Assembly (NCBI GenBank): GCA_902776735.1 | Contig: CACYRE010000001.1 | Coordinates: forward strand, 48,395 to 112,394 | DNA: 64,000 nucleotides | DNA from: an uncultured Erysipelotrichaceae bacterium | Lineage (GTDB): Bacteria > Bacillota_I > Bacilli_A > RF39 > UBA660 | Reading direction: 5' to 3' | Part shown: positions 1-57,037 of the stretch, in pieces | How positions within the stretch are numbered: the stretch's first letter is position 1 | Layout: each line of letters starts with the position of its first letter | Notes under the pieces: model-generated | Told to the model about the DNA's origin: nothing | Database searches by the model: none | Seen by the model: the letters and a program-made list of their open reading frames with translations, nothing else | Translations under genes and position numbers: made by a program

Positions 1-2018
1 AAATCTGGTTCTTCTATATTTGTATCATCTTGAGGAATTTCTTCTTCTGGTGAAGGTTCTGATTTTTCTGGAGTAGGTTCAGAAATCTCTCCTTTATCTA
101 CCATTTTCTTTTCTTCTTCAGATGGTATTCTACCAAATCTAGTTTCTATATAAGATTTAATTATTGTATTAGTGTCATAAGGAGTATCTACTGTAGGTAT
201 TTTAGTTAAATTAATTTTTTTATCTTTAACATCTGCAGAAGGTATAGAATATAAAGTCTCATAAGTGTCTGGATTAAATACTACCTCTATATCTCCAATA
301 TTGAATTGTTCATAAGCTTCATTTATTTTTTGAGATTCTTTAATTACTCCTACTACTTCATTATCAGGAGTTGGTTCTTTTACCCATTCTTTACCAAATA
401 TCATTGCTACTACTTCATCTGTATTAGCAAAAGATAATTCATATTTATCATCTTTATTAGTAACTTCTATATTATATGGAACTTCTACAGCGAAAGCGTA
501 CATTCTATTTTGAATAGCAGGTTTCATTTCTTTCTCAGCTTTTACTTCTTTTGATAATTCTATAAACATTTTAATGTTTTCAATTTCCATTTTTAAATCT
601 AAACGATTATTAATATAATTTTCTACGGTTTCTTTTTCTGTTTTAGCTTTAGCTACTTCAGCTTCTTTAGCTTTTTCTTCTTTAGCTTCTTGAAGAAATT
701 CAGATTCTAACCATTCATATATAGCTTTTTGAGGATTTGTAGTCTTTTTAGAATATTTAGTAGTACCATTTAAATTATTTACTTTAAATTCTACTAAGTT
801 ATTGTTTACTTTTTCTAGAATTAAATTCTTTCCTATAGCAGCATCTTTAATTCCTCTAGATTCAAATTCTTTTAATATTTCAGGTGTAGAAATATCTACT
901 AAAGCATAAGAACTATTTTCGTCTATCTTACTAGAAAGAGTTTTAATATGTCCCCAGTTTTCAGAATAGTTTTCTTTTAAAGCACTATCTACTAAAGTAA
1001 GCATAGCTTCTATATCTGGAGATTGAACATCTCCATCACCTACTTGGTCTAATACAGTTACATCTTGAATTAAATAATCAGGCTCTATTTCTACATCATT
1101 TATTCTAACTATTTCTTCCTCTTTTAAATCTCCAGAATTTAGTTTTTTAGCTCTTTCTTTCATTTCTTTTTCTGTACCAAATACTAGCCATGCTTTTGAT
1201 TTTTTACCAAATATTCCCCATTCTTTACCTTTATATTTAGATGCTTCATATTCATTTTCTGATTCATTAATTGAAGATTCATTTAAATATTCTTCTAATT
1301 TATTAGCTAATTCATTATTTGTTTCTGAATCTCTAATTTCATTTAAAATTCTTTGTAAAACTTCTTTATTTTCTTCTTTATTTTCTAGCATTGCTAAAGT
1401 TTCATTATAAATCTCTTCTTCATTACCTTGAATTTCATCAAAATAATTTCCCATGTCAGAACCATAAAAATCAATAATTTCATTAGCTAAATCAGAAGTT
1501 TCTAATTTTTTATTATGTTTATCTGCCATTTTATCTTGAGTCTTTTTAGAAACTGTAATCTTTTTTAAATGACCTGTTTTTGTATCTCTAATAGATTTAT
1601 TTCCATCTTTATCTACTTCTATTTTATCAGCTTCATTTAAATCTCCAAATGGATTTTCACAGCTAAGATAATAATTATATAATTCTTCAGCATTATCAAA
1701 ATCTTCAGTTTTTCTATTATTAAAATTACCATCATCATCTTGTTGAGCATCTTCAATAAAACTATCAAAGAAATTACATACAGCTTGAGGATTTATTTTA
1801 AATGAATTTTTATAATCATTTATAAAAAGACTTCCTAGTACTATTTCTTGTCTTAATTTCCATAATTGTTCTTTAGTTAAATTATTAGGGTCTATTTTTT
1901 CAGCTTCAGTTAATTTTTTCCTCTTTCTTTTAATGGCTTCTTTTGATTTTCTTTTAATCTCAAATTCTTTTTCTAGACTTTCATTTAAAGCATTAAAAAT
2001 ATTAATATTAGTCTTCAT
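1..2018 (-). CDS. hypothetical highly acidic protein; 3' end runs off window start
   Basis: Continuous minus-strand open frame from ATG at ~2016-2018 to position 1 (checked codons at both ends; absent from ORF track only because no stop in window). N-terminus MKTNINIFNALNESLEKE carries the LNE|S leader-like motif; D/E-rich. Confidence 0.5.
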   Translation of the reverse strand, partial: MKTNINIFNALNESLEKEFEIKRKSKEAIKRKRKKLTEAEKIDPNNLTKEQLWKLRQEIVLGSLFINDYKNSFKINPQAVCNFFDSFIEDAQQDDDGNFNNRKTEDFDNAEELYNYYLSCENPFGDLNEADKIEVDKDGNKSIRDTKTGHLKKITVSKKTQDKMADKHNKKLETSDLANEIIDFYGSDMGNYFDEIQGNEEEIYNETLAMLENKEENKEVLQRILNEIRDSETNNELANKLEEYLNESSINESENEYEASKYKGKEWGIFGKKSKAWLVFGTEKEMKERAKKLNSGDLKEEEIVRINDVEIEPDYLIQDVTVLDQVGDGDVQSPDIEAMLTLVDSALKENYSENWGHIKTLSSKIDENSSYALVDISTPEILKEFESRGIKDAAIGKNLILEKVNNNLVEFKVNNLNGTTKYSKKTTNPQKAIYEWLESEFLQEAKEEKAKEAEVAKAKTEKETVENYINNRLDLKMEIENIKMFIELSKEVKAEKEMKPAIQNRMYAFAVEVPYNIEVTNKDDKYELSFANTDEVVAMIFGKEWVKEPTPDNEVVGVIKESQKINEAYEQFNIGDIEVVFNPDTYETLYSIPSADVKDKKINLTKIPTVDTPYDTNTIIKSYIETRFGRIPSEEEKKMVDKGEISEPTPEKSEPSPEEEIPQDDTNIEEPD

Positions 2019-3606
2019 TCTCTAAGTCCTCCTCTCCATTTATATCTATATCTAAATCTATGTCTTCATCTGGTTCTATAGGAGTTTCTTCTGGTTCTTC
2101 ATTATTTTGAAGTTCTTCAGCAGCTTCAGGATTTATTTCGATTAAACAATTCATTAAATATTCTACTATAGCTTCATGGTCTGGAGTTAATTCTTCACCA
2201 TATCTAGGGTTTAGTTTATTAACTTCATCAAATGTATTAGGAAGTTTTACAAAGTCAAATCTTTGTTCTAATTCAGTTTTATGTTCATCTTCTTCTGTCT
2301 CTTCATTGTTTTCTAAATCTATTTCTTCAGCTTCTTCTAATTTATATGTAGGTCTTAATTTTTGTGCTTGTTTTATAGCACTATCTAAATCATCAAATTG
2401 AGATTGAGCTCCAGAAAATGATTTTTCATCTGAATAATATAAAGTTTGATATTTACCATTAGGTAATTTATTAATTTCTACTCTTTCATTAGAATTTTCA
2501 GGATTTCTTAAAACTTTTGCTAATTCAGCAGATTCATTTATATTACCTGATTTAAGTTTTTGTAATTCATTGGATAAGTTAATTAATTGGTCTTTTTTCC
2601 ATTCAGCATCTTTAATTAAATCTGAAATACTAGATGGAACTCCTCTTTGACCTCTCATTTCAATATAAGGTTCAACTTCTTCGTCAACATCAAAATTTTC
2701 AGCATAAGAAGAAATTTCATCTATTAATTTATTAACATCATTATTTACAATAATATCAACAAACCAGTCTTCTCCTTCTGGTGTATATTGTTGAATTTCC
2801 CAGCCAGTTTCATTTCCAGAAAAATTAACATCTTCATCTTGAATTGTAAAACCACAGTTTTCAATAATTTTCTTAGCTTTTTCTAAATCATTTGAATTAT
2901 CTTCAGCTTCATTTATATTATCAGTATCTATATTATCAGTATCTATATTATCAATTATAGGTTCTTCTTCAGGAATTTCTTCTGAATTAACCTCTTCAGG
3001 TTTAGTATCTACAAGCATTAGAACATCGTCTGAGTCTTCAGCTACTTTACCTATAATATAAATACTATTATTTAAATCTTCTTTATCTGTAATTTGATAT
3101 AAGTTTAAGTCTAAGTCTACTAAAATATCTCTAAGTTCATTTAATTCTTTATCTAATTCAGATTCTTCTTCTATAGGATTTTCTTCTTGGTCTTCTTCAC
3201 TATCTACCGTATCTTCTAATTCTTCTTGATTTTCCAAATCCTCTTCAGCTTTATCTTTTAAATCTTCAATATCATCATCTGCTTCTGTTAATTTAGCAGA
3301 TTCATTTCTTGGAGCGATAGGTTTTACATCCATTGTTAAATCTGCATGGTCTGAATTATCCCAATTTTCTTTAAATTTATTATAAATTTCTATTGCTTCA
3401 TCATCACTTGTTGCACTAAATCTTTTTACATCATTTGCATCTACAGTAATAATATAATTGTTTCCCTTAGAATCAGTTCCAAAATTAAATTTCATTAAAG
3501 ACATAAATCCGTCTCTTGCAATTTCAGTAGCATCCCAGTATTCTTCAGTAGAACCTTCTTTTAATTTTTTATTTTCAGATTCTACTAATTTTAATTTCTT
3601 ATACAT
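2008..3606 (-). CDS. hypothetical very acidic protein (D/E-rich, 532 aa)
   Basis: Long ORF, ATG at 3604-3606 preceded by GGAGA SD; extreme acidic composition; N-term contains KLVESE (LxE). Confidence 0.6.
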   Translation of the reverse strand: MYKKLKLVESENKKLKEGSTEEYWDATEIARDGFMSLMKFNFGTDSKGNNYIITVDANDVKRFSATSDDEAIEIYNKFKENWDNSDHADLTMDVKPIAPRNESAKLTEADDDIEDLKDKAEEDLENQEELEDTVDSEEDQEENPIEEESELDKELNELRDILVDLDLNLYQITDKEDLNNSIYIIGKVAEDSDDVLMLVDTKPEEVNSEEIPEEEPIIDNIDTDNIDTDNINEAEDNSNDLEKAKKIIENCGFTIQDEDVNFSGNETGWEIQQYTPEGEDWFVDIIVNNDVNKLIDEISSYAENFDVDEEVEPYIEMRGQRGVPSSISDLIKDAEWKKDQLINLSNELQKLKSGNINESAELAKVLRNPENSNERVEINKLPNGKYQTLYYSDEKSFSGAQSQFDDLDSAIKQAQKLRPTYKLEEAEEIDLENNEETEEDEHKTELEQRFDFVKLPNTFDEVNKLNPRYGEELTPDHEAIVEYLMNCLIEINPEAAEELQNNEEPEETPIEPDEDIDLDIDINGEEDLENED

Positions 3607-3620
3607 TAGTAATCTCCTTT

Positions 3621-4004
3621 CTAAAAATCTTTATGAGTATATATAGTTCTATAAAACATTTCAATTACTTTTAATCTATCTCTTTCATTATAAAGAGGTT
3701 TAGATTCTTCTTCTATCATATCAATAGCAGCTTTTATTCTATCTTTTTGTTGTTTTTCTAAAACTGTATTATTAGATAAAAGTTTTATAGCTTTTTTACA
3801 TTGACTTATAAAATATTGAGTTTCTGTAATTAATCTTAATAAATTAGAATATTCATATACTATTCTATTATACTGATTAGATATATAGATAGTATCCATT
3901 TGTTGTTTATAATCTGCAAATTCTATTTCTGGAACACTATCTAAATATCCATCTATTTTCTTTATTAAAGTATTTAATGTATTATTTAAAGATGATAAAT
4001 CCAT
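3621..4004 (-). CDS. hypothetical protein
   Basis: ORF in co-directional array, RBS GGAGGTAT upstream of ATG. Confidence 0.5.
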   Translation of the reverse strand: MDLSSLNNTLNTLIKKIDGYLDSVPEIEFADYKQQMDTIYISNQYNRIVYEYSNLLRLITETQYFISQCKKAIKLLSNNTVLEKQQKDRIKAAIDMIEEESKPLYNERDRLKVIEMFYRTIYTHKDF

Positions 4005-4051: not shown

Positions 4052-5659
4052 TTAATCTTCATAGAATAAATCTGGTGAATTATGATTTTGTATCCATTCT
4101 TCTACTATATTTCTCATATTATCATAAGTTTCTTCATTAGGTATGTCTAATTTAACATCTCTAGTTAATTCTTCTCCATCATTACCTATTGCATATATAT
4201 CAAACTTTATTATATTGTTATCTTCAAAACTTATATTTCCTACTGTAAAATCACTTCCATCAAAAGCATCTTGAATAGCTTTAACTAGATTATTACCAGA
4301 ATCAGTATTAGTATCTTCTTTTAAGTCAGTATTTTCAGATTCACTGGTGTCTTCTAATGGTTGGTCTGGATTAAATTCTTCCCCATCTTTAATAACTTCA
4401 CATCTATCTAAATAATCTTTATCAGCTTCTTCTTTGCTTTCATAAATTTCTGCATTTTCTATTTCACCTTCAGAAAGATTATAATTTTCACCTACTATAT
4501 ATCTAGTTCCTTCAGATTTATCTTCTAGCATATAAATATTACCTTGTTCTTTTACTACTTGTAAATCTTTAACTTCTGTTTGAGCAGCTTCTACTACAAG
4601 TTTCTTTTTCGTTTTTTCTGACTCAGATAACTTATTATAATCATTTATAATATCTTTATCTTTCATCCAAGTATTTCTTATTAAATCTTCTTTATCTTTA
4701 TCTGATAATGAATTATAATAACTTGGGTCATCTATTGCTCCATTATCTAATAATCCTTTTACATAATTATAAAAATCGTCATCATTTACAGGTTTCTTTT
4801 CTATTGGTTTATTTGGTCCGCCTGCTTCTTCTAAAGATTTTTCTGATTCACTATAAAACTCATTTCCGCTAGCTAATCTTTTTCCTCTTTCTATTTGATA
4901 GTTACAAGTTTCTATCCAATCATTAACCATTTGTACTGATAATTTAGCTCCAAAAGAATTAGTATCTATAGCTTCTAAAGCAGCTTTTATTGTTTCCACA
5001 TCAGAAACAAAATCTTCTGGGTCTCCACCTAATTTTTCAGAATATTCTTCTTTTAAAGATTTAGCAGATTCTGATAGATTTCCTCCAGCTTTTACTTTTT
5101 CAAAAGCTTCTTTTCCAGATGCTTCATCGTAATAATAATATCCATAATCCCAAGAAATTTCATCATTTTCTACAGTATATCCAAAAGCTACTACATATTC
5201 ATCACCCATTTTTTGAAGTTTAACTAAAGCAACAGGTTGGCCTCTTCTTTCTGTTTTGTCTAGTATTTCAGCTTTTTCTCCTAGTTTAAATCCTTCTTTT
5301 AAAGATTTAGCAGATTCATCTAAAGTATTCCATTTTTTAAGTTGGTCCATCATAACTACTTGTTTACTAGGTACTTCAACAGTTACATATTTTCCATCTT
5401 CTATTTCTATAATAGGGGCTTCTGTAAATTCTCCTGGTGTATATGAACCATATTTATATGGTACTTTTACTACATCTCCTACTTTAAAATCTTGATTATT
5501 CTCTTCTTTTAAAGGTTTATCACATTCTTGTAATTCAGATTCTAATTTTTCTACTTTAATCTTAGTACCTTCCATAAAAACTCTTTTTTTAATTTTAAAA
5601 GTTTTAGTTTCACTTTCATTAAGTTCTTTTGCTAAATTAAAACTAAGTTTATTTAACAT
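4052..5659 (-). CDS. hypothetical protein with shared 30-aa N-terminal leader (family 2)
   Basis: N-terminus MLNKLSFNLAKELNESETKTFKIKKRVFME nearly identical to adjacent gene 5675..6430; ~95 bp DNA repeat at both 5' ends. Confidence 0.65.
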   Translation of the reverse strand: MLNKLSFNLAKELNESETKTFKIKKRVFMEGTKIKVEKLESELQECDKPLKEENNQDFKVGDVVKVPYKYGSYTPGEFTEAPIIEIEDGKYVTVEVPSKQVVMMDQLKKWNTLDESAKSLKEGFKLGEKAEILDKTERRGQPVALVKLQKMGDEYVVAFGYTVENDEISWDYGYYYYDEASGKEAFEKVKAGGNLSESAKSLKEEYSEKLGGDPEDFVSDVETIKAALEAIDTNSFGAKLSVQMVNDWIETCNYQIERGKRLASGNEFYSESEKSLEEAGGPNKPIEKKPVNDDDFYNYVKGLLDNGAIDDPSYYNSLSDKDKEDLIRNTWMKDKDIINDYNKLSESEKTKKKLVVEAAQTEVKDLQVVKEQGNIYMLEDKSEGTRYIVGENYNLSEGEIENAEIYESKEEADKDYLDRCEVIKDGEEFNPDQPLEDTSESENTDLKEDTNTDSGNNLVKAIQDAFDGSDFTVGNISFEDNNIIKFDIYAIGNDGEELTRDVKLDIPNEETYDNMRNIVEEWIQNHNSPDLFYED

Positions 5660-5674
5660 AATATAAACTCCTTT

Positions 5675-6430
5675 CTATAAAGTATTTTTAATCGGAATAA
5701 TTAAATCTAAATGGTCTTGTAAATCTTGTGTATCTATTCCTCCATATTGTAAATCATTTTGAAATTCTGTTTCAGCGTCAGATTCCCAATCGAATTCAGG
5801 GTCATTTTCTTCAGCCCATTTTTTAGATTCTTCATAATATCCTAAAGCTTCTATTATTTTCTTTTCATCATCTATTAAAGTAAATAAACCAACTTCAATA
5901 CTACCATCATGGTCTGCAGCATCTAATACAAGATTTCCATTTTCAACTGAGATTTCAACTATATCCCATCTACTAATATATTCTTCAAATTCTGATATAT
6001 TTGAAAAAGTAACACCACCATTGCCAGATGGTTTAAAATCAGAATAATTAGAATTATATCCACCCATTAAATATAATCTACCAAAATTCATTTGATTTTC
6101 AATCATTGGTTCTATATTTTCTTTAAAATCATCCCAAATAAGTTCTGAATCGTCATAAAAATCAGAATTTAGCCATTCATCATAACTAGGGATTTCATCC
6201 TCATCATATCCATCAAAATTAGCTTTAATATAATCATTATAAGCTTCTTCACTAGTATCTACTTCAGAAGACCAAATTGTCTGTCTATTTTCATTTTTTA
6301 TATGAAATTCATTTAGTCTTTCTTTTCTAACTCCTGTGCTTTCCATAAAAACTCTTTTTTTAATTTTAAAAGTTTTAGCTTCACTTTCATTAAGTTCTTT
6401 TGCTAAATTAAAACTTAATTTGTTTAACAT
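5675..6430 (-). CDS. hypothetical protein with shared 30-aa N-terminal leader (family 2)
   Basis: N-terminus MLNKLSFNLAKELNESEAKTFKIKKRVFME; paralogous leader to 4052..5659, unrelated C-terminal body. Confidence 0.65.
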   Translation of the reverse strand: MLNKLSFNLAKELNESEAKTFKIKKRVFMESTGVRKERLNEFHIKNENRQTIWSSEVDTSEEAYNDYIKANFDGYDEDEIPSYDEWLNSDFYDDSELIWDDFKENIEPMIENQMNFGRLYLMGGYNSNYSDFKPSGNGGVTFSNISEFEEYISRWDIVEISVENGNLVLDAADHDGSIEVGLFTLIDDEKKIIEALGYYEESKKWAEENDPEFDWESDAETEFQNDLQYGGIDTQDLQDHLDLIIPIKNTL

Positions 6431-6443
6431 AATGTTCTCCTTT

Positions 6444-6719
6444 CTATATTTTTTCTAATATCATTCCTACAGCTGTTTTTTCTTCACCTTGTATAGATAA
6501 AATATCAAAATAAGGTCTGATTATAATATCAAACCCTGAAGGTGTAGCTAAACCTCTTGCAGAAATTACAGCTTTTACAGCTTGATTTACTGCAGGTACA
6601 CCAATACATTTTAGTTCTAATTTATCTACGTTTTTTATATTAGCATAAATTGCTGACGCTAATTTTTTAATATCAGTATCTTTTCCAACTCTAAATTCTG
6701 GTATGTTCTTTGCTTCCAT
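6444..6719 (-). CDS. spoVS: SpoVS-like protein (stage V sporulation protein S homologue)
   Basis: 91 aa; strongly resembles SpoVS core (CIGVPAVNQAVKAVISARGLATPSGFDIIIRPYFDILSIQGEEKTAVGMILE vs SpoVS GAGALNQAVKAVAIARGFVAPSGVDLICIPAF..GEERTAIKLIVE, recalled from memory); RBS AGGAGGTAAAT-ATG. Confidence 0.75.
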   Translation of the reverse strand: MEAKNIPEFRVGKDTDIKKLASAIYANIKNVDKLELKCIGVPAVNQAVKAVISARGLATPSGFDIIIRPYFDILSIQGEEKTAVGMILEKI

Positions 6720-6806
6720 ATTTACCTCCTAATCTACTATTTTTTAGCTCCTAATATAATAAATAATTAGAATGTAAAAAGGTACCAGAATTAAATCTAG
6801 GACCTT

Positions 6807-7196
6807 CTATTTAATATTTTTTAATTTGGCTTTAAACTCTACAATCTTATTTATATCATCATTATCAAAATCCTTGTATTTATCATATAATGATTTTAGT
6901 TCTTTAATTGGATAAGTACTAGTTTTATATTTTGAATCATGATAAATTTTATTTAAATATTTACATCTATTTCTATATAGTCTATAATAGTTACTATGGT
7001 TATTAGTATATTGTTCTTTACATTTTAAAGAACAATATACTTGATTACCATGTTTTTTAATAAATGATTTTTGACATTGTGGACAAACACAGACTAAACT
7101 AGCACTATAAATAATCTTATCTATCATTTTATCTACATATATTTCAATATTTTTTATTAATATTTCTTTTAATTCTTTTTTTAAATCTTCTTCCAT
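6807..7196 (-). CDS. Cys-rich zinc-finger protein (CxxC...HGN...Cx3C...H)
   Basis: CVCPQCQKSF..HGNQVYCSLKC..H pattern; possibly degenerate HNH-like, not assignable. Confidence 0.45.
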   Translation of the reverse strand: MEEDLKKELKEILIKNIEIYVDKMIDKIIYSASLVCVCPQCQKSFIKKHGNQVYCSLKCKEQYTNNHSNYYRLYRNRCKYLNKIYHDSKYKTSTYPIKELKSLYDKYKDFDNDDINKIVEFKAKLKNIK

Positions 7197-7198
7197 AA

Positions 7199-7870
7199 TT
7201 AATATCTCCTATTTAAATCTAATATAAAGTTAAATACTCTAAGTTCTGTATTATATATTGGTGATTCCATAAAATTAAATAGAGCAGGCTTTATAGAATC
7301 ATATTTAACTTTCTTAAAATCTTCTATTAATTTCTTATACCATTTAGAAATATTATTGCTAGAAAGTACTACTCTATTTAAAAAAGTTAGTAAACTCATT
7401 TCTATATATTCAGCACCTACTTTATCCAGTAATTGTAAATAAGTTTTAGATATAGTAACTGTATCAGTATTAAAACTTCTAAGAAATTCTAAGAAAGCTC
7501 CAGTATTATCATATTCTTTCATTTGCCATTTACCAGTAATCCACATATATTCTATTTGGTCTCTAAAAGTAAAATCGTCTAAATCTTGATAAAATTCTAA
7601 TAAGTATTTAGGAACTTTTCTTTTCCACTTAGAAAATACTATGTCTAATAAAGTTAATCTATCTGTTAAATCTATTTCACCTGCTGCAGATACTGATATA
7701 TAATTCACTCCTAAATTCTTAATTTTATTTAAATATTTAGTTTCACCAGTCCATATAATATTTCTATCTGATAATAATATAGGTTTATCTAAAACTATAT
7801 AATCTGGATATAAGAATTGTAATAAACCTATATCATCTATTTTTACACTATGATTTATAATACTAATCAT
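7199..7870 (-). CDS. hypothetical protein
   Basis: ORF tightly packed (3-nt gap to downstream gene). Confidence 0.5.
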   Translation of the reverse strand: MISIINHSVKIDDIGLLQFLYPDYIVLDKPILLSDRNIIWTGETKYLNKIKNLGVNYISVSAAGEIDLTDRLTLLDIVFSKWKRKVPKYLLEFYQDLDDFTFRDQIEYMWITGKWQMKEYDNTGAFLEFLRSFNTDTVTISKTYLQLLDKVGAEYIEMSLLTFLNRVVLSSNNISKWYKKLIEDFKKVKYDSIKPALFNFMESPIYNTELRVFNFILDLNRRY

Positions 7871-7873
7871 TTT

Positions 7874-10048
7874 CTACCTCTTTATATTATTTCTTTTACA
7901 ATAAACAATTATTGTACTTTTATCTCTATTTAATTTTTTAGCTATTTTTCCATAAGATATGTTTTTAATATTATTTTTTATAAATTCTTTTTCTTCTTCT
8001 GTTAAATAATTAATATTCTTTTTATATTCTATATAATTTAATCTACAATAGTTTCTTATTGTAGCTTCTGCTCTATTTAATTTTTCTATCATTTCTTTAA
8101 GTGTCATATTTTTAGCATTTTTCTTTATAAAATCTCTTTCTTCTTCTGATAAAAGTGAATAACCCCTTTTTCTTGTATGTTTATATTCTATATTATTTTT
8201 ATTATAATATTCTCTAATTGTAGCTTCAGCTCTATTTAATTTATCCATCATTTCTTTAATAGTCATATTTTTAGCATTTTCTTCTATAAAATCTTTTTCT
8301 TCTTCTGATAAATAATGAGAGATTTTTATATATTCTATATTATTTCTATCACAATAAGCATTTATTACAGACATACTTCTATTTAGTTTTTTTGCTAATT
8401 CTTTAGATGTCATAGTTATAGCATTTTTCTTTATAAAGTCTTTTTCTTCTTCTGTAAAAGGATTATAATCTTTTTTATGTTCTATATTATTTCTATAATA
8501 ATAACCACTTATTGTTGGTGTACATCTATTTAGCTTTTTTGCTATTTCTTTAATAGTCATATTTTTAGCATTTTCTTCTATAAATTTTTTTTCCTTTTCA
8601 GATAAAAAATAAAATTCTTTTTTATATTCTATATTATTTCTATCACAATAATCTCTAATTGTAGCTTCTGGTCTATTTAATTTTATTGTTAATTCTTTAA
8701 TAATCATATTTTTAGCATTTTCTTCTATAAATTTTTTTTCTTCCTCTGATAAAAGATAAATTTCTTTTTTATATTTTATATTATTTCTTTTATAATATTG
8801 TCTTATAGTATAAGGTTTTTTATTTAGTTTTTTTGCTATTTCTTTAGTTGTCATAGTCATAGCATTTTCTTCTATAAATTTTTTTTCTTCTTCTGATAAA
8901 TAAATAATTGTATGAGTGTTTTCTTTAATTAAATTTATTAAATTTTCTTGTTTTGTATAGATTTTTAATTTTTCTTTCTTCTTTCCTATTTTAATATCAG
9001 AAACTTTTATATTTCTTTTTTTAGCAAAATTTTCCCAAATAGATATATAACCACTATCTAAATTATATGCATTATTAACTAAATCAAATACTATAGCATC
9101 TTCTCTATGTTCTGAAATTATTCTACCTAATTGTTGTTGATATATAATATTACTTCTAGTTTTTCTTAAGAATACTGCTACATCTATATTAGATAAATGT
9201 ATACCTTCAATAAACATATTTACTGAATATAATATATTTATTCCTTTTTTAGAATTATAAAAATCATTTAATATTTGATTATTAAGTTTATTAGATTTTT
9301 TAGAATGTATATCAAAATTATTAACATCTCTATCTATCCATAATTTTATAAAATTTTTTGCTTGTTCTATATCATTAATTCTAGATACAAATACTATAAT
9401 ATGAAGAGGTTTACTATAATCTATAAATTCTTCAAATATATTTTTTACTTTAGTATTTATATCATAATTAGATAATTTCTTTTGCAAAGCTTTATTTTTA
9501 TAATATCTATAATCTATTTCATAAATAGAAGAAACATATTTTATTTGAGGTAATATTCCTCGTTCTATAGATTCAGCTAAATATAAAGGTTCTATTTCTT
9601 CATTATTAAATATTAATTCTATAGGATTCTTACCATCCATTCTTTCAGGAGTAGCACTAAATCCTATCATTTTACCTTTATAATCTTCTAAGTCTTTCTT
9701 TAATATATTACCCCATTTTTCTGTAACTGACCTATGCATTTCGTCTAAAAATATATAGTCATAATCTAATAAAGACTTATGATTAAAATTTTGTTTTAGT
9801 AAATTACTATATATTATAAAATCTGTATTATTATAATTTCCAAATTCTTTAATATATTCAACAATATTATCTCTAGGTTCTATAATAAGTTTCTTTCCTA
9901 GAAGCTCATCACATAATTCCATTATAATATGAGATTTACCAAAACCTACTGGTCTTACTACACCAAATTTATCACAAGTCTTTAATTTTTCTAATATTAA
10001 ATTTTTAGTCTTTATTCTTTCTATAGATAGTAAACTTTTATCAAACAT
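7874..10048 (-). CDS. SF2 helicase-like ATPase fused to eight tandem helix-turn-helix repeats
   Basis: Walker A VGFGKSH, DExH-like FLDEMHR, SATP motif, QQLGRIIS; C-terminal 8 x ~46-aa repeats LSEEEKxFIEENAKNMTIKEIAKKLNRxxxTIRxYxxRNNIEYKK (HTH-like); promoter TTTACA-N17-TATAAT upstream. Confidence 0.7.
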   Translation of the reverse strand: MFDKSLLSIERIKTKNLILEKLKTCDKFGVVRPVGFGKSHIIMELCDELLGKKLIIEPRDNIVEYIKEFGNYNNTDFIIYSNLLKQNFNHKSLLDYDYIFLDEMHRSVTEKWGNILKKDLEDYKGKMIGFSATPERMDGKNPIELIFNNEEIEPLYLAESIERGILPQIKYVSSIYEIDYRYYKNKALQKKLSNYDINTKVKNIFEEFIDYSKPLHIIVFVSRINDIEQAKNFIKLWIDRDVNNFDIHSKKSNKLNNQILNDFYNSKKGINILYSVNMFIEGIHLSNIDVAVFLRKTRSNIIYQQQLGRIISEHREDAIVFDLVNNAYNLDSGYISIWENFAKKRNIKVSDIKIGKKKEKLKIYTKQENLINLIKENTHTIIYLSEEEKKFIEENAMTMTTKEIAKKLNKKPYTIRQYYKRNNIKYKKEIYLLSEEEKKFIEENAKNMIIKELTIKLNRPEATIRDYCDRNNIEYKKEFYFLSEKEKKFIEENAKNMTIKEIAKKLNRCTPTISGYYYRNNIEHKKDYNPFTEEEKDFIKKNAITMTSKELAKKLNRSMSVINAYCDRNNIEYIKISHYLSEEEKDFIEENAKNMTIKEMMDKLNRAEATIREYYNKNNIEYKHTRKRGYSLLSEEERDFIKKNAKNMTLKEMIEKLNRAEATIRNYCRLNYIEYKKNINYLTEEEKEFIKNNIKNISYGKIAKKLNRDKSTIIVYCKRNNIKR
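7900..9000 (-). repeat. eight imperfect tandem ~138-bp repeats encoding the HTH repeat array
   Basis: Protein-level 46-aa repeats within CDS 7874..10048. Confidence 0.6.
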
Positions 10049-13597: not shown

Positions 13598-15634
13598 TTA
13601 TAATACTTGAATAGCTCCAGTAGATGCAAAATAAAATCCACTAAAATCTAAGTCTCTACCTAAAGCTCCATAATCAAAATAATCAGATAAATCATTTCCA
13701 TCTGCAATATCTATTTCTAATTGTTCTTCTACTACAGAGTCTAACCATTCTTCTACTAGGTCATAAAATTCATCACTACCTTCATCTATATCTGGGTTAT
13801 CATCTCTTACAGATTCTTCAGCTGCTTCTCTCCAGCTTTCTCTATAAGCTTTTTCATCAATATAATTTTCTTTATTAGCTACTCCTTCAAAACCTCCAAT
13901 CATATCTACCCAGGCTTCACCTAATTCTTCTTCAGTTTCTACTCCTGGAAAGAATATATAATCCCCAGATTCTAATATATCCATACAAGTATCAAAATCA
14001 TCATTTTGGTCTTCCATTATAGCAGTAAAAGCAGCTCTTTCATCTTCTGATAATTCTTCAATCTTTTCAAGCTGTTCAATAACTACCCAAGGATTTGAGT
14101 ATTCATCTATAGTAAAAGGAATATCTCCTTCAGTATCATTTATAAATGGTTCTTCATCTTTATGTGCTTCTAAAAATTCTTTAGCTTGTTCTAATTTCAT
14201 CCAACCACCATTTATTTGTTCTACATCTGCTCCATTTTCATTATAATTTCCCCAAGTATTCATAAATAATTCAATATTTAATGGATTATATTCTTCTGTT
14301 AATAAACCTTTTTCTATACTATCTTTTCTTACATTTTCTAAACTAGATTCTTCTAATTGACTTAATTTATCCATTAGAAAATCTCTTTTAGACTCTAAAC
14401 CAGAAATATTTTTATTTGGGTCAGAATTTGCTATACTATCTTGTACTTTTTCTAATTCTTTCTTTATAGTTTCAGCATAATCTTTTCTTGTTTTATTTGA
14501 TACTGATTCAGACAACATATCATAAACTTCTTGTGTTTCATATCTTATTATATGTTTTCCATCTTTATCAGTTCCATTATACATAGGACCTAAATAACCT
14601 TTAAATTGTAATTGATTATCTAATTCTTCTCTTGGAACTACACCACCATTATTTCTATATTTTGAATTATCAGGAGATAATTTATCTTCTTTTATTGGTA
14701 ATTTTTCTGCTTCTTCTCTTGTATAAGTTCCAGCATAATCACCACCAACTAATTGATAGACATAATTATTATAATCAGCCTCTTCATTTAAAGCTGATTC
14801 ATCATATTCCTCAAAATCAAAGTTTTGATTTACTTCTTCTAAAAATTCATCTAAATAATTATCATTTACAGAATCTAAATCTGTATTTCTTAATGCAAAC
14901 ATTATTACTTGAACCATTGATTGCCAGGTTTTTGACCTATTAAAATCTTCTATATTATTAGGCATTGATGAAATAAAACCAGAACTAGAAGAATAATTTG
15001 ATTTTAAAAAGTTTTCAAATTCACTATTTGATAAAGCTTCTTTTCTTAAATTTTCATATTCATCTTGATTTACTTCTAAATTAAATTCTAGCTCGTCTCC
15101 TGAATAATTATATTGACTTGGATGATAAACTTTATTTGCTATAATTTTAGCACTTGGAAGAACTTCTTGTATTGTTTTTTCTATATATTTTGGAGCAATA
15201 TCTTCTATTATTTTATCTAATTCTTCTAATGAAGCACTATCTGGTAATCTGTCACTTAAAGAATACATATCAACATTTATTATTGGAAGTACCCCAGTAT
15301 TTAAATCTATATCTAAATTAGCTCCAGATTCATTTAAATTAGATTCATCTAATGATATACTTCCATAACCTTTATATTCTTCATATCCTTGGTCTTTTAA
15401 TTCTCTTGCTTTTTGTCTTAATGCTTTGCTTGTTAATTTTTTATGTTTATTTAAAGGCATTGTTTGACTATTAACAAATTGAAATTGTTTAGTTTCATTA
15501 TTTATAATTAAACCTAAAATACTAAAGTTAAATTGATTTTTAGACACATAGGTTTCGTCACCAGATAACATTTTTTTGTCATCTTCTTTTAAATTTGCTT
15601 GAATATTTTCAAATAACTTTTTTGTTCCTGACAT
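13598..15634 (-). CDS. large leader-bearing protein (MSGTKKLFENIQANLKED)
   Basis: 678 aa; N-terminus fits family-1 leader consensus; RBS AGGAGGATTAAAATG. Confidence 0.65.
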   Translation of the reverse strand: MSGTKKLFENIQANLKEDDKKMLSGDETYVSKNQFNFSILGLIINNETKQFQFVNSQTMPLNKHKKLTSKALRQKARELKDQGYEEYKGYGSISLDESNLNESGANLDIDLNTGVLPIINVDMYSLSDRLPDSASLEELDKIIEDIAPKYIEKTIQEVLPSAKIIANKVYHPSQYNYSGDELEFNLEVNQDEYENLRKEALSNSEFENFLKSNYSSSSGFISSMPNNIEDFNRSKTWQSMVQVIMFALRNTDLDSVNDNYLDEFLEEVNQNFDFEEYDESALNEEADYNNYVYQLVGGDYAGTYTREEAEKLPIKEDKLSPDNSKYRNNGGVVPREELDNQLQFKGYLGPMYNGTDKDGKHIIRYETQEVYDMLSESVSNKTRKDYAETIKKELEKVQDSIANSDPNKNISGLESKRDFLMDKLSQLEESSLENVRKDSIEKGLLTEEYNPLNIELFMNTWGNYNENGADVEQINGGWMKLEQAKEFLEAHKDEEPFINDTEGDIPFTIDEYSNPWVVIEQLEKIEELSEDERAAFTAIMEDQNDDFDTCMDILESGDYIFFPGVETEEELGEAWVDMIGGFEGVANKENYIDEKAYRESWREAAEESVRDDNPDIDEGSDEFYDLVEEWLDSVVEEQLEIDIADGNDLSDYFDYGALGRDLDFSGFYFASTGAIQVL

Positions 15635-24043: not shown

Positions 24044-24826
24044 TTATTGTACTGGTTCACGTACTTCCCAACCTAATTCCATACAATCTTGCCAAATAGG
24101 TAATTCTGTACATGTATTACATTGACTATCTGAAAAACCAAGTAAACGGTCTAATGTTTTCCAATGAGCTCGTGGTGGTTGAACTTTATTTAATGGAAAC
24201 TCAATATCAGAAATCATAGCTAATATGTTATTTAAACTTTCATTAGATAAATTTGGACAATTTTGAAACATATTATTCATAAAATTATCATGCAAATATT
24301 CTTCTAATGTTTTATCAAAGCTTTCAGCAATCCTTGTTATATCTTCTAAACTAGTATTTATACAATATACTGGTACATCAACTAAATCTCCACAACCACC
24401 AAACATTCCATAAACAGATGTTGCATTAATTATATTTATTTGTGGAGCATTTATAATTCGTGAACCTGAAAACATACTATCAAATCTAGTACCAGAACTT
24501 GTATCTATATTTAAGTCAATTCTAGAGCTATCTGTATCAGAATAAAGCTCACCAAACATATTAACGAAATCTGTAACTTGACTAAAATCTAATTTATTAA
24601 AAACATCACTTATTAATAAATTATAATATTCAACAGGAATACTACCTTCATCATATAAAGTGTCTCTAAACATCTCTACTGCTCTAAGTCTAGTAAAACT
24701 AGGTAAAGTAGGTTTATAATTTCCTACTACATTAAATATCTGTGTTCCTGGTCTTATGTTATCTGAAATAATTTTTTCATTTTTTTCAGTTAAAATCTCT
24801 TCAGCTTTTTCTTTTAAAGTAGACAT
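24044..24826 (-). CDS. receptor-binding/tail-fibre-like protein, paralogue A2; C-term with NxSNESLNNILAM motif
   Basis: Shares N-term with 22115 and C-terminal NLSNESLNNILAMISDI with 51002 and 56285 proteins. Confidence 0.55.
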   Translation of the reverse strand: MSTLKEKAEEILTEKNEKIISDNIRPGTQIFNVVGNYKPTLPSFTRLRAVEMFRDTLYDEGSIPVEYYNLLISDVFNKLDFSQVTDFVNMFGELYSDTDSSRIDLNIDTSSGTRFDSMFSGSRIINAPQINIINATSVYGMFGGCGDLVDVPVYCINTSLEDITRIAESFDKTLEEYLHDNFMNNMFQNCPNLSNESLNNILAMISDIEFPLNKVQPPRAHWKTLDRLLGFSDSQCNTCTELPIWQDCMELGWEVREPVQ

Positions 24827-42944: not shown

Positions 42945-42947
42945 AAT

Positions 42948-43027
42948 TGGAGAAGGTAGGATTCGAACCTATAATATTTAAATGACTTATACAAATCATT
43001 ATTCTCTACCAATTGAGATACTTCTCC
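42948..43027 (-). tRNA. tRNA-like gene with canonical acceptor/D/T arms but non-canonical anticodon arm (isotype unassigned)
   Basis: Minus-strand RNA GGAGAAG-TA-TCTC-AATTGGTA-GAGA-A-[TAATGATTTGTATAAGTCATTTAAATATTA]-TAGG-TTCGAAT-CCTA-CCTTCTCC-A: 7-bp acceptor, D-arm, GGTTCGAATCC T-arm; no 5-bp/7-nt anticodon arm can be drawn (best: 7-bp stem AATGATT/AGTCATT with 6-nt loop, or 6 bp with 8-nt loop). No encoded CCA. Confidence 0.55.
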
Positions 43028-43377
43028 ATAAATTTGGTGAGAGGTTCTAGTTTACGTCCAAATTTATAAGGTAATCAACCTCTTTCAGAGTATAAATACT
43101 CCCTCTCTATTAAATGACGTACATTGCACTATACAATAATATAAATCTATTAGGTTATTATATAATATGATGAGTATTATTTTTAATTAACATCATTATA
43201 TTATTAATACAGCTACTGTAACTCTATAATGTAGACCTCTTCATTCTACACCGTCGCTTTACACTATATAAAGCTAAATACCTATAGGCGTCTATTATTT
43301 CAAATAGACATCCACATCTATCATTGTAGATGTTTCAAGTATCATAAAATGTAATCCTCTGGACGATTACTTTTCCA

Positions 43378-47913: not shown

Positions 47914-49269
47914 CTAGTATTTCTTAACTAAATTACAATAATTAAGATTTACCCATCCGCTAGGTGTTTTAGCCCAATCACCTCTAATTTCTTTTGTATC
48001 AAATCTAGTACCTTTTTTATATGTTTTTATAACTCTATAATTTGTACTAGGACCACGTCTTACATTTAAATTTGTAGTTGTAATATATTTTCCTAAAACA
48101 TATTTAGGAGTCTCAGGTTGTGTTTTAGGACTTGTTTGTTCATTAGATGAGTTATTATTTGTCTGTGGAATTTCAGTGCTTAATGATGAAGAATGAACCC
48201 AAAATTGTCTATCTAACATTTGAACTAAAACTCTTTGTCCTTCATCCCATACTACAGTAGCTAATCCATACAATCTATTATCTGAAGTTACTACTGATTT
48301 ATTAATCCAGAACTGATTTAATCCATTATCAACTATTACTTCTGTACCACCATCATAAGCTATTGCAATTGATTCATTAACTAAAACTCTTTGTCCTTGT
48401 TTATATTTTTGTTCTATTGAATTATTTGGTTTATATGCAAACCATCCTTTTGAATTAGCATATTTCTTAAAATTTGAAATACTACAATAAACTGTATTTC
48501 CAGATACTGTTACTTTTCCCCTTCTACTTGAAGAATTAAATTTTCCAGCATATAAATATGGGTCATATATTTTTAGTATATCACCTGAAATACCAGATAT
48601 TACTATATAATGACCTCCTGTTGTAAATAAACCTTCTGAACAACTAACTATTTCATAAGAACCATTTTTTATCTCTTGTAATGCGTCATCAACATTATAT
48701 AATTGTTTATAATCTATATCATAAGCACTTGCTGTCCATTTAAATGCACTAAAATAAGTTCCATTATCAGCACTTCTAAATCCATTATTAACAAATAATT
48801 TAGCCATTGTTTCAGGTGTTACACTGCTATCTTTTAAACCTGCTACTATCATAGCTGCTGAAGTTGGTCCACATCCACTAGAACCTATAGTTTGATTTAG
48901 ATTTCCAACTGAAGTATAAAGTATATTTTTCCATCTGTTATCTATTTGTGAATAATAGACTGGTTTATTAATTACCTGTGAATTTCCTATAGAAATTTCT
49001 TCTGTTTCTTTAGTTGATTTAGATATAATATCCGGATTTGACTCCTCAAATCCTTCAACTTCTAGATTATTTTCATCATATTCTGAACCACTTGTTAAGG
49101 TGTCTTCTTCAATATATTCAATATTATTTTCTATAATATCTTCTTCAATAACATTTTCTATTTTATTTTTCTCAATATTATTATGCACTGTATTTATAAT
49201 TAATCCTGTTATAATAATTATAATAAGACATAGGAATATTTTAAATAAATTATTCTTTAACTTTTTCAA
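47914..49269 (-). CDS. endolysin: N-terminal TM/signal-anchor, cysteine peptidase (C39-like/NlpC-P60 superfamily) domain, C-terminal SH3b repeats
   Basis: Hydrophobic N-term LFKIFLCLIIIIITGLIINTV; SSGCGPTSAAMIV (Cys) and GGHYIVISG (His); repeated GQRVLV... and RRGPSTNYRVIKTYKKGTRFD SH3_3-like segments. Confidence 0.65.
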   Translation of the reverse strand: MKKLKNNLFKIFLCLIIIIITGLIINTVHNNIEKNKIENVIEEDIIENNIEYIEEDTLTSGSEYDENNLEVEGFEESNPDIISKSTKETEEISIGNSQVINKPVYYSQIDNRWKNILYTSVGNLNQTIGSSGCGPTSAAMIVAGLKDSSVTPETMAKLFVNNGFRSADNGTYFSAFKWTASAYDIDYKQLYNVDDALQEIKNGSYEIVSCSEGLFTTGGHYIVISGISGDILKIYDPYLYAGKFNSSSRRGKVTVSGNTVYCSISNFKKYANSKGWFAYKPNNSIEQKYKQGQRVLVNESIAIAYDGGTEVIVDNGLNQFWINKSVVTSDNRLYGLATVVWDEGQRVLVQMLDRQFWVHSSSLSTEIPQTNNNSSNEQTSPKTQPETPKYVLGKYITTTNLNVRRGPSTNYRVIKTYKKGTRFDTKEIRGDWAKTPSGWVNLNYCNLVKKY

Positions 49270-50779: not shown

Positions 50780-51014
50780 TTACGTTTTGAGATTTACGCA
50801 CCAATTTATCTAATTCTGACTGAGAGACTATTAAAGTATCGATTATTACTCCTAATTGTTCTGGATATTCACTAAATGGTGAATCTTCTTCTAAAGTTCC
50901 TCCAATTTCATTAATAGAATCTTTTATTAAATCTTTAGTTTCTTCAATGTATTCAAGTTTGGTTTCTATTTCATTATTTTCTTCCATAAACATACCTCCT
51001 ATTATGCAGACCAT
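50763..51014 (-). CDS. hypothetical acidic protein
   Basis: small ORF. Confidence 0.4.
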   Translation of the reverse strand: MVCIIGGMFMEENNEIETKLEYIEETKDLIKDSINEIGGTLEEDSPFSEYPEQLGVIIDTLIVSQSELDKLVRKSQNVNGEEL

Positions 51015-52606
51015 CCAGCATCTACAAAATCTTGATAATTAGATAGACTTTGACATTTTGTTCTTTGAGTAGAATTTAATCCAGTATAACCTAATGTTTT
51101 TGGAGAAGTATTTACTGCAGTGATACAAGAAGCCATTATATTATTTAAACTTTCATTTGACAGACTAGTACATCCTGTAAAAGTACTAGACAATCCAGAA
51201 CCAGCGATACTACTTAAATTGAATACAGGTAAAGTTTCTAATTTAGTACATCCATTAAACATATTAGACATATTAGTAACTTTATTTGTATCTATCTGAG
51301 GTATACTTTCTAAGTTAGTACAATTCTGAAACATATTAGTCATATTAGTAACACTAGAAGTATTCAATAAAGGTATGGTAGTTAAACTATCACACTTATA
51401 AAACATATAAGACATATTAGTAACTTTATTTGTATCTATCTGAGGTATACTTTCTAAGTTAGTACAATTAGTAAACATACTGTTCATACTAGTAACATTA
51501 CTAGTATTTAGTAAAGGAATAGTAGTTAAACTATTACATCCAGAAAACATACTTTGTGTACTAGTAACACTACCAGTATCTATCTGAGGTATACTTCCTA
51601 AGTTAGTACATCCAGAAAATATATTGGCCATATCAGTAACTTTATTAGTATTTAATAAAGGAATAGTAATTAATATACGACAATTTCTAAACATTCCTTG
51701 CATATTAGTAACATTACTTGTATCTAATAAAGGTATACTTTCTAATTTATAACAGTATTCAAACATATTTTGCATAGTAATAACTTTACCAGTATTTAAT
51801 AATGGTATAGTAGTTAAATTAACACAACTATCAAACATTTGTTGCATATTAGTAACATTGCTTGTATTAAATAATGTTACACTTTCCAATCTATTACAGT
51901 TTTGAAACATACTTTGTGTATTAATAACACTAGAAGTATCAGGCATTCCTACTACTTCTTTTAATCTCTTAGCATCCCAAAAGAAAGCTTTTAAACTATT
52001 AGTTGTAATTGGAACATCAGTTAAATCTACTTTTTCAATAAATGAAAGAATTCTATTTTCAGATGGTGAGCTCTGCGCTCCAGTTTCAGTAGATATAGAA
52101 TTTGTAAGACCAACATTATAATCAGGAATTTCAACAGTTCCTTCAATATTTAATATTTTATAACCTTTAACTATTTTAGAAGCGGTTAATCCTATACTTG
52201 AAGCTAATGTACTCGGAGAAGTGCCTAGCTGGATATGAGCAGCCCAAGAAGTATTCCTTAATAGCTTTCCTTGTGCAGGAAGATTATAATAACAAGAAAA
52301 ATATACTGACCCTGTAATACTTGAATAATCTTTTATTTGTGAAGCAGTTTGATAAATTGAATCTATTATTTCTATATTTCCTTCTATTAATTTCCCATCT
52401 TTATAAATCGTATATCCTTGTGCTACTTCATCTGCTGTAGCTGTTGCGTCATTACCTATACTATCTATTTTATCTACATAGCTTCTAAACGTATCTTCAT
52501 CAGAAACTTCTTGACCTTTATCAATTAAAGTTTCTTTAATTTGCCTTTTTGTTTCTGCTAAATAATTTAAATTATCTTCTAAATCTTGAGTTGTGTAATC
52601 AGACAT
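51002..52606 (-). CDS. receptor-binding/tail-fibre protein with ~11 DUF285/BspA-type 22-24-aa repeats
   Basis: Repeats ...LNTSNVTNMQxMFxxCxNLxxIP...; C-term SLSNESLNNIMASC...SNYQDFVDAGWSA shared with 56285 and 24044 proteins. Confidence 0.65.
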   Translation of the reverse strand: MSDYTTQDLEDNLNYLAETKRQIKETLIDKGQEVSDEDTFRSYVDKIDSIGNDATATADEVAQGYTIYKDGKLIEGNIEIIDSIYQTASQIKDYSSITGSVYFSCYYNLPAQGKLLRNTSWAAHIQLGTSPSTLASSIGLTASKIVKGYKILNIEGTVEIPDYNVGLTNSISTETGAQSSPSENRILSFIEKVDLTDVPITTNSLKAFFWDAKRLKEVVGMPDTSSVINTQSMFQNCNRLESVTLFNTSNVTNMQQMFDSCVNLTTIPLLNTGKVITMQNMFEYCYKLESIPLLDTSNVTNMQGMFRNCRILITIPLLNTNKVTDMANIFSGCTNLGSIPQIDTGSVTSTQSMFSGCNSLTTIPLLNTSNVTSMNSMFTNCTNLESIPQIDTNKVTNMSYMFYKCDSLTTIPLLNTSSVTNMTNMFQNCTNLESIPQIDTNKVTNMSNMFNGCTKLETLPVFNLSSIAGSGLSSTFTGCTSLSNESLNNIMASCITAVNTSPKTLGYTGLNSTQRTKCQSLSNYQDFVDAGWSA

Positions 52607-56284: not shown

Positions 56285-57037
56285 TTAATATCCAGTAGAC
56301 CATCCAGCATCTACAAAATCTTGATAATTACTTAATTCTTTACATGTAGTTGTTTGTATTAATGTTAATCCTATATATTTTAATGTCTTATTAGACGCTA
56401 TTTTTGTTGCATTTATACACATTGCTAATATATTATTTAAGCTTTCATTTGTTAAATTAGGACAATAAAACATACTTTGCATACTAGTAACATTACTAGT
56501 ATTTAATAATGGTATAGTAGTTAAGTTAGTACAATTTTGAAACATATAAGACATATTAGTAACTTTACCAGTATCTAATAAAGGTATAGTAATTAATGTA
56601 TAACAATTTTTAAACATATTACTCATAATAATAATATTAGAAGTATTTAATGATGGTATATTTTTTAGATTAACACAATCTTCAAACATATTTTGCATAG
56701 TAGTAACATTACTATCAACCTCAATACTTTGTGGTAATTTCATAATCATATAACGTATTCCTGGAGCACTATAAGTAGCCATATCATATCTAGTTTTAAT
56801 AATTGGCTCTATTATTGCATTATATTCGCTACTACCTTCTTCTAATGTACCAGTTACTCCTAAAATAGTAACATCTTTTTTAATATTTTCAGGTATTATA
56901 TATTCATCTTTTTGTCTTTTTATTTCATTAAGATTATCTATTAAAGCATTTATAAATCTCCTTTCTTTATTCTTCCAGATTATCTTCTGGAAGAGATAAA
57001 ATTTCGTCTGTAATATCTTCAGCATTATTAACCTCAT
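56285..57037 (-). CDS. receptor-binding/tail-fibre-like protein with DUF285/BspA-type repeats
   Basis: IIPENIKKDVTILGVTGTL homologous to N-term of 22115/24044; repeats SNIIIMSNMF..C.TL.TIP; C-term NLTNESLNNILAMC...SNYQDFVDAGWSTGY; 5' end overlaps upstream ORF by ~70 nt. Confidence 0.55.
   Translation of the reverse strand: MRLIMLKILQTKFYLFQKIIWKNKERRFINALIDNLNEIKRQKDEYIIPENIKKDVTILGVTGTLEEGSSEYNAIIEPIIKTRYDMATYSAPGIRYMIMKLPQSIEVDSNVTTMQNMFEDCVNLKNIPSLNTSNIIIMSNMFKNCYTLITIPLLDTGKVTNMSYMFQNCTNLTTIPLLNTSNVTSMQSMFYCPNLTNESLNNILAMCINATKIASNKTLKYIGLTLIQTTTCKELSNYQDFVDAGWSTGY

Follow-up and report, generated by a model that had tools for sequence, protein, structure and literature searches.

SpoVS was identified genetically in 1995. 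Here we describe a gene of the SpoVS family on a stretch of 64,000 nucleotides (the window), which comprises positions 48,395 to 112,394 of contig CACYRE010000001.1 in an assembly of an uncultured Erysipelotrichaceae bacterium (GCA_902776735.1). The gene encodes a protein of 91 amino acids (aa). In this study, we show that the window belongs to a phage, that the 91-aa gene is a genuine, divergent SpoVS-family member and that the phage group has inherited it vertically as a core gene. Its product most likely acts as a small nucleic-acid-binding regulator.

A phage-encoded member of the SpoVS family

The window has a GC content of about 25% throughout and every gene is encoded on the minus strand. 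Replication is represented by a DNA polymerase of family A, an ATP-dependent ligase and three helicases, one of which is DnaB-like. Virion genes encode a structural protein and a component of the baseplate wedge, and the lysin is of the C39-peptidase/SH3 (SH3_3) type. Homing endonucleases, an ArdA-like domain and an Acb2/Tad1-like domain are encoded as well. An earlier note on this DNA had called the SpoVS gene phage-encoded, and the DNA polymerase, the DnaB-type helicase, the ligase, the baseplate and the virion genes bear this out. The phage represents an uncultured lineage, since a stretch of 8 kb, compared by megablast to 50,697 phage records, matched none of them and, when a close cultured relative was sought, the DNA polymerase was less than 32% identical to those of cultured phages (lysin, less than 35%).

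The open reading frame (ORF) of the SpoVS gene lies on the minus strand, a detail that the earlier note left unstated. A profile search, the check on which that note had staked its claim of SpoVS homology, recovers the family (PF04232) with E=9.7e-22 over profile positions 4-82 of 83; the score of 77 bits compares with a gathering score of 24. The three core motifs quoted in the note are found as well, with AVNQAVKAV spanning residues 43-51, ARGLATPSG 54-62 and GEEKTA 78-83. Moreover, the product matches PHROG 35646, a "sporulation protein" of the moron/auxiliary metabolic gene (AMG) category (E=1e-14, 55 bits, profile positions 11-89 of 93), and PDB 2eh1, the SpoVS-related protein of Thermus thermophilus (2.8e-12). 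NCBIfam gave no match for the product, nor for canonical Bacillus subtilis SpoVS, the library being without a SpoVS model. The family match is far above chance.

An AlphaFold2 model built on 27 sequences of the phage clade (mean predicted local distance difference test, pLDDT, 92) has a beta-alpha-beta-alpha-beta-beta topology and can be superposed on the solved SpoVS structure. Beyond SpoVS itself, the closest folds are overwhelmingly those of nucleic-acid binders, and the protein falls under the Pfam cut-off of 25 bits for the Alba family itself (PF01918). The family-wide motifs RV..K, IG, VNQAxKA, ARG, GxD, PxF and GEE[KR]T are all present, and nine positions (V11, G40, Q46, A47, K49, R55, P69, F71 and T82) are invariant among the phage clade, B. 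subtilis, Thermus and three copies from cultured phages. The isoelectric point (pI) is 8.8, as compared to 6.2 for B. subtilis SpoVS.

A lineage outside the canonical orthologue group

The 91-aa protein shares 39.5% identity with B. subtilis SpoVS (the sequence used for comparison was validated at 97.7% against database representatives) and 38.7% with Thermus SpoVS. These two canonical proteins, although from different phyla, share 59% of their residues, and identities of 53-78% have been reported among SpoVS orthologues across phyla (PMC5167688). The scores on PF04232 show the same gradation: 134 bits for B. subtilis, 129 for Stenotrophomonas phage TS-12 and 120 for Lysinibacillus phage LysYB1, versus 73-77 for the clade described here, including its relatives L014 and L028 with 73-74. 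Identity of at least 55% to B. subtilis SpoVS is found in 39 of the 183 top family domains, and the phage clade is not in that set. The canonical N-terminal motif (L/R)KVSxKSxPNSVAGA is replaced by FRVxKDTDxKxLAxAI, which is invariant within the clade, so that the beta1-alpha1 loop reads KDTDxKxLAxAI instead of SKSSPNSVAGA. On these sequence comparisons the protein appears as a true family member that stands outside the canonical, B. subtilis-type sporulation orthologue group, because its identity of 39% lies below the 53-78% seen among orthologues and because the N-terminal motif is replaced.

A HMMER search of 1.84 billion protein representatives yielded 982 family members at E<=1e-3, and in this exhaustive search nothing outside the clade came closer than about 51-52% identity. 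In a neighbour-joining tree the phage clade is monophyletic, with protein P0030 (51%) as its sole near neighbour. For the nearest outgroups, P0030 and P0033, no close relatives were found in IMG/VR. Tandem arrangements of two, three or four SpoVS domains occur in 35 of the 150 best family representatives (113-542 aa), including P0031, P0032, P0037, P0059, P0060 and P0070.

Phage-encoded SpoVS is already known from PHROGs, GenBank, BFVD and virome papers; the clade described here is new and divergent. Annotated copies are found in Bacillus phages BCD7 and KLEB27-3, Lysinibacillus phages LysYB1/2, Stenotrophomonas phage TS-12 and BFVD entry A0A6J5QJM8. Like the present protein, these copies, together with PHROG 35646 and the genes of the "AMG" reports from soil and marine viromes, are phage-encoded, single-domain family members. 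They are, however, only 31-42% identical to it and lie in unrelated genomic contexts, and TS-12 and LysYB1 carry canonical-type copies, whereas the present clade is a divergent lineage of its own. Its gene belongs to the syntenic core of an entire group of phages and is preceded by a conserved element. In the literature we found no tested function for any annotated phage copy. The TS-12 gene (MW302330.1, positions 4989-5264) has B. subtilis-like motifs; TS-12 is recorded on a non-sporulating gammaproteobacterium, for which a canonical-type SpoVS is odd. Viral spoVS has been reported from soil viromes (PMC6172770) and, in a marine oxygen-minimum zone, as one of the auxiliary genes that viruses there carry most abundantly (PMC8940887). 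At least 545 stretches in IMG/VR encode a family member. The GC content of 80 viral SpoVS loci ranges from 24 to 63% (median 43%), a sample biased to our AT-rich query and not used as host evidence.

Compared to bacterial SpoVS of the same family, PF04232 (B. subtilis P45693, B. thuringiensis SpoVS1/2, Thermus 2eh1/2ek0), the present protein thus differs by an identity of only 38-39%, its lower profile score (77 vs 134 bits), its beta1-alpha1 loop, its more basic character and its phage origin. Members of the Alba-like superfamily (archaeal and eukaryotic Alba, and Pop6, Pop7 and Rpp20 of RNase P/MRP) are much more basic and share 10-16% identity with it.

The SpoVS gene is a core gene of the phage group

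Close homologues were found in public assemblies in 29 cases, with 53-98% identity and lengths of about 91-95 aa throughout. Contigs found by means of SpoVS itself would make any test for a core gene circular, so IMG/VR was searched again with neighbouring genes. The 223-aa gene upstream of SpoVS retrieved the same four viral genomes, all four with SpoVS. The DNA ligase retrieved four different genomes of 122-133 kb, and again all four carry an ORF with a SpoVS domain. Altogether, the SpoVS gene occupies the same syntenic slot in 8/8 related IMG/VR contigs, four of them found through the ligase alone; the order is the 223-aa homologue, SpoVS, a variable acidic protein and a 127-aa protein.

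In every locus comparison the SpoVS homologue is among the best-conserved proteins. It is 88% identical in L002 (flanking genes, 58-68%), 73% in L006 (48-68%), 59% in L014 (27-46%) and 54-63% in L025-L028 (24-60%). Among the closer relatives, the pairwise ratio of non-synonymous to synonymous substitution rates (dN/dS) is 0.05-0.25. The synteny in 8/8 relatives, the high conservation and these dN/dS values are what one expects of a core gene that is passed on vertically and matters to the phage, and not of a sporadic auxiliary gene. Neither patchy presence nor close similarity to a cellular gene, the marks of an auxiliary or "moron" gene of host origin, was found. With an identity of no more than 39% to canonical SpoVS and its vertical retention as a core gene, it does not look like a recent host-derived mimic either. 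What is new here is modest, namely that the gene belongs to the syntenic core of a group of large uncultured phages of the gut and has a deeply conserved upstream element.

SpoVS is chiefly known as a bacterial family and many viral genes annotated as "auxiliary" are passengers, which would fit a neutral or decaying gene of bacterial origin without function in the phage. Against this stand an ORF that is intact in all relatives, strong purifying selection, conservation better than that of most neighbours, and the retention of the gene's position, its Shine-Dalgarno (SD) sequence and its upstream element. Intact ORF, synteny and purifying selection effectively exclude a passenger.

A conserved element upstream of the gene

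The earlier note had assigned the gene a strong SD, and indeed AGGAGG lies 5 nucleotides (nt) upstream of the ATG, at a position retained in all relatives. Upstream of the SD, the alignment of related loci revealed a conserved element (Table 1) whose TTATTTATTATATTAGGAGCT block spans 6746-6766. Its consensus is TTATTTAT(T)ATA[AT]TAGGA, also written TTATTTATTATA[AT]TAGGA. The block is found 40-52 nt before the ATG in 11 of 12 related loci, including relatives with 54-63% protein identity, and is kept even where the neighbouring proteins have diverged to 24-60% identity. A shorter core of the element is not clearly enriched in the window (12 found versus 6.6 expected; 7 of 100 shuffles reached 12).

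The note had further proposed that the gene has its own promoter-like element. A scan with the sigma-70 consensus called no promoter on the minus strand in the 87-bp gap upstream of the gene, and promoter-like matches in the region (16) did not exceed the 18.8 expected from shuffles. What holds of the proposal is the conserved block itself, which contains a -10-like TATATT/TATAAT without an acceptable -35; by eye, a TTTACA lies only 14 nt from the TATATT. A sigma-H-type promoter pair and a T7-like promoter (…TATAGGAG) were considered and rejected, since neither shows a fixed spacing (for the former, judged by eye in the relatives' leaders) or further copies. Going by its conservation, the block is probably a locus-specific regulatory element: a promoter, an operator or both.

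The terminator-like hairpin at the far end of the gap (RNA fold dG -12.6 kcal/mol, z -3.3) is matched by equivalents that fold in two relatives, L010 and L016; in L014, an inverted repeat of similar kind can be seen by eye. It would separate the SpoVS gene from upstream transcription. A further terminator-like match at 6537..6512 was disregarded, lying inside coding sequence.

Neighbouring genes

Table 1. Features of the SpoVS locus and further features of the window
Feature	Position	Strand	Basis or remark
SpoVS-family coding sequence, 91 aa	6444..6719	minus	ATG start; Alba-like fold, PF04232
Shine-Dalgarno sequence AGGAGG	6725..6730	minus	5 nt before ATG of SpoVS gene
Conserved upstream element, TTATTTATTATATTAGGAGCT + AAAAAATAGTAG	6733..6766	minus	alignment of related loci
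Terminator-like hairpin and T-run	6776..6808	minus	directly after stop of 129-aa ORF
129-aa Cys-rich, HNH-endonuclease-like ORF	6807..7196	minus	weak match to PHROG 1271, E=2.6e-4
223-aa gene, constant upstream neighbour of SpoVS gene	7199..7870	minus	synteny
251-aa gene, pI 4.1	5675..6430	minus	own SD starts 13 nt after SpoVS stop; L002 homologue 58% identical
535-aa acidic paralogue of 251-aa gene, pI 4.4	4052..5659	minus	N-terminal ~70 aa in common
127-aa gene, always downstream in same block	3621..4004	minus	synteny, 24-72% identity
Third very acidic protein downstream of SpoVS gene, pI 4.05	2008-3606	minus	
724-aa protein with helicase domain and repeats	7874-10048	minus	
ArdA-like part	within 13598-15634	minus	
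Paralogous protein	24044-24826	minus	
tRNA-like gene	42947-43028	minus	Rfam tRNA, 44.7 bits
Paralogous protein with DUF285 repeats	51002-52606	minus	
Paralogous protein	56285-57037	minus	

The SpoVS gene probably heads an operon and is probably co-transcribed with the 251-aa gene, because the SD of the latter begins so shortly after the SpoVS stop. The products of the 251-aa and 535-aa genes are almost identical over their N-terminal ~30 aa and share 53% over 78 aa (self-BLAST) before they diverge; in relatives, the slot of the 535-aa gene holds proteins of 445-816 aa. The three acidic downstream proteins contain up to 29% D+E and none of them has a family or defence-system match. Specifically, the 251-aa gene matched nothing in Pfam, PHROG or PADLOC, and PADLOC returned nothing for the SpoVS gene or its neighbours.

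In every relative the SpoVS homologue stands in a tight, operon-like arrangement with acidic proteins (pI 4.0-4.4), despite their variability. It might act mainly through contacts with proteins, for instance as a chaperone, adaptor or antidote of these acidic proteins, instead of binding nucleic acid. Its only modestly positive net charge and the acidic KDTD of the conserved loop, unusual for a loop in contact with nucleic acid, agree with such a partnership. However, the acidic proteins match no family or defence system, and nucleic-acid binders dominate the nearest folds beyond SpoVS. We consider a protein-partner role improbable.

Upstream, the 129-aa ORF is present in L001, which is the same phage, and a homologue was not found in L002, L006, L010, L011, L012, L014 or L025-L028. 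Only in this phage does it separate the SpoVS gene from the 223-aa gene, and it looks like the insertion of a mobile endonuclease. For the 223-aa protein a single-sequence structure model was unusable (pLDDT 40). Further upstream, the 724-aa protein consists of an N-terminal helicase domain followed by about eight tandem helix-turn-helix-like repeats of ~48 aa (LSEEEKKFIEENAKNMTIKEIAKKLNR..TIR.Y..RNNIEYKK), which match "D5-like transcriptional regulator" and sigma-factor PHROGs; its homologue in L014 is only 400 aa long. Related phages encode a Cpn60/GroEL-type chaperonin of 454-458 aa some 7-8 kb downstream of the SpoVS gene (L002, 18261-19637; L003, 17583-18959; L006, 16897-18261; L008, 10153-11517). 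The equivalent position would fall beyond the start of the window.

Lineage, habitat and host of the phage group

The relatives are catalogued as viral genomes in IMG/VR, with related contigs of up to 120-133 kb, and the group has a GC content of 25-30%. Record names (STEW19, ANDE20 scaffolds, "BRZ_EQ" and metagenome-assembled genomes, MAGs, from goat duodenum) suggest a herbivore-gut habitat. Two contigs of ~132.5 kb, L014 and L015 (JAFQXM010000001.1 and JAFRAK010000039.1), come from two goat-duodenum "Bacilli bacterium" MAGs that are GTDB species representatives. They are syntenic with the phage group in the 12 kb compared and were the only two phage-like contigs found in a genome scan. Probably they are phage genomes binned into bacterial MAGs, and the binning may represent weak host evidence or contamination.

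A pooled Pfam scan of 58 window ORFs matched 19 families, the domains not being assigned to individual ORFs. Counter-defence and regulator domains found in the window are an Acb2/Tad1 hairpin (3e-12), ArdA (6.5e-7), an AbrB/MazE/SpoVT-type domain (8e-9) and MazG-like pyrophosphatases. Besides the three paralogous proteins of Table 1, one of which carries DUF285 repeats, the pooled scan placed DUF285 in two further ORFs and a BclA_C-like domain in the window without localising them. All of these probably represent receptor-binding or tail-fibre proteins, and they hint at a Bacillota/Mollicutes-related host. In an Rfam scan of the window a tRNA was the only match. ARAGORN called the identity of this tRNA-like gene undetermined and read its anticodon as the four bases "gtat"; perhaps the tRNA is unusual or of a frameshift type.

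Discussion

The earlier note had taken the gene to imply an endospore-forming host. This does not follow, because the family occurs in non-spore-formers, in TS-12, in viromes and in the at least 545 viral stretches. Rigden and Galperin found SpoVS in every sequenced genome of the Chloroflexi, Thermotogae and Deinococcus-Thermus, all non-spore-formers (PMC2732212), and the solved SpoVS structure comes from Thermus. The Bacillota-like traits of the phage suggest a walled, low-GC, Bacillota-like host and say nothing on sporulation.

A related proposal is that the phage protein replaces or competes with the host SpoVS of an endospore-forming Bacillota host. Spore development may thereby be delayed, blocked or hastened, so that the phage completes its cycle or becomes trapped in spores. 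Mutants in spoVS of B. subtilis and B. thuringiensis show altered septation, engulfment and sigma-E/sigma-K- and sigma-D-dependent expression; SpoVS genes are annotated in Bacillus and Lysinibacillus phages, and the window combines Bacillota-like features with one protein of the AbrB/MazE/SpoVT domain type. Phages are known to carry sporulation regulators that change spore yield (PMC10294663). In the portion of that systematic survey of phages of spore-formers on which we draw, spoVT, abrB and spoVG are among the enriched genes, but spoVS is not. Neither Spo0A nor sporulation sigma factors nor SpoIIID appeared in the pooled Pfam scan, and family members occur in phages and viromes without a link to spore-formers. 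The divergence of the protein from a group of orthologues that is conserved across phyla, the replaced N-terminal loop motif and the position as a syntenic core gene across a deep phage group speak against a sporadically acquired competitor of host SpoVS.

One further locus bears on this question. A 970-bp contig, L016 (positions 1-970; ENA ERZ28564088, ANDE20-1 scaffold_109517), carries a hybrid spoVS gene. Residues 1-~50 of its product, P0028, resemble a distant phage subclade (L014/P0027-like), and residues ~50-91 are canonical Firmicute SpoVS of clostridial type (AIARGFVAPSGVDLVCIPAF...). The hybrid may be a real phage/host recombinant or an assembly chimera. If real, it places phage-type and canonical clostridial-type spoVS in one cell, which would favour interference; the junction, however, falls within a 27-nt stretch of shared AT-rich codons, as might be the case in a chimera. 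Taking both sides together, we regard interference with sporulation as rather unlikely, and less likely than a regulatory role intrinsic to the phage.

The 91-aa protein most likely serves as a small regulator that binds nucleic acid and acts in the programme of the phage itself, in host takeover or in both. We put the probability of this role at roughly 0.55, because of the Alba fold, the mildly basic pI, the location among genes of DNA metabolism, the behaviour as a core gene and the conserved leader. For SpoVS, an Alba fold and DNA binding were predicted by Rigden and Galperin (PMC2732212), with confirmation in 2024 (PMC11621453). The gene sits in the DNA-metabolism part of a phage genome of ~120-133 kb, probably as the first of a transcription unit that would start after the terminator-like hairpin and a conserved element of ~20 nt and run on into very acidic, rapidly changing proteins. 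The protein would bind DNA or RNA, probably in dimeric form, as Alba does and as has been modelled for SpoVS. Binding would regulate gene expression or nucleic-acid handling during infection, and the protein would not be a specific mimic of the host sporulation SpoVS.

Several observations weigh against a nucleic-acid-binding regulator. The literature that we found credits no SpoVS protein with a demonstrated biochemical activity, so that binding is argued from the analogy of folds. The net charge of +2 is well under that of a typical archaeal Alba. The upstream element is single in the window at up to three mismatches. Within Bacillota, SpoVS has been reported in spore-formers only (PMC2732212), and the phage shows Bacillota-like traits, namely AGGAGG SDs, the SH3_3 lysin, DUF285 and BclA_C domains and relatives in "Bacilli bacterium" MAGs; together, these two points leave some room for a link to sporulation.

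A small nucleic-acid-binding protein of the abundant type, encoded by a conserved gene in a region for replication and transcription, has a counterpart in TF1 of SPO1, a member of the HU family from a large lytic-type phage of a low-GC host. TF1 differs in fold and family, and the likeness is an analogy of role only. A bolder and decidedly tentative extension of the regulator role sees in the 91-aa protein a "phage Alba", an essential phage-specific nucleic-acid-binding factor that recognises its own deeply conserved upstream element and controls the hypervariable acidic proteins of its operon. The many "sporulation" genes of the SpoVS family in viruses, also those from habitats poor in spore-formers, would then be general DNA/RNA-binding regulators unrelated to sporulation.

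Viral copies of SpoVS are routinely reported as "sporulation AMGs" and taken as evidence of viral manipulation of host dormancy. The present gene shows that a SpoVS-family match in a phage can represent a divergent, vertically inherited core gene with a conserved, probably regulatory element of its own, and that the family name is no guide to host sporulation. If the protein does not bind nucleic acid, it is an ordinary, correctly recognised homologue. If it does, and especially if it binds its own leader, the phage clade would become a convenient model for the mechanism of the SpoVS family. Should the notion of a "phage Alba" prove true, the clade would offer a tractable system for the long-sought biochemical activity of this family.
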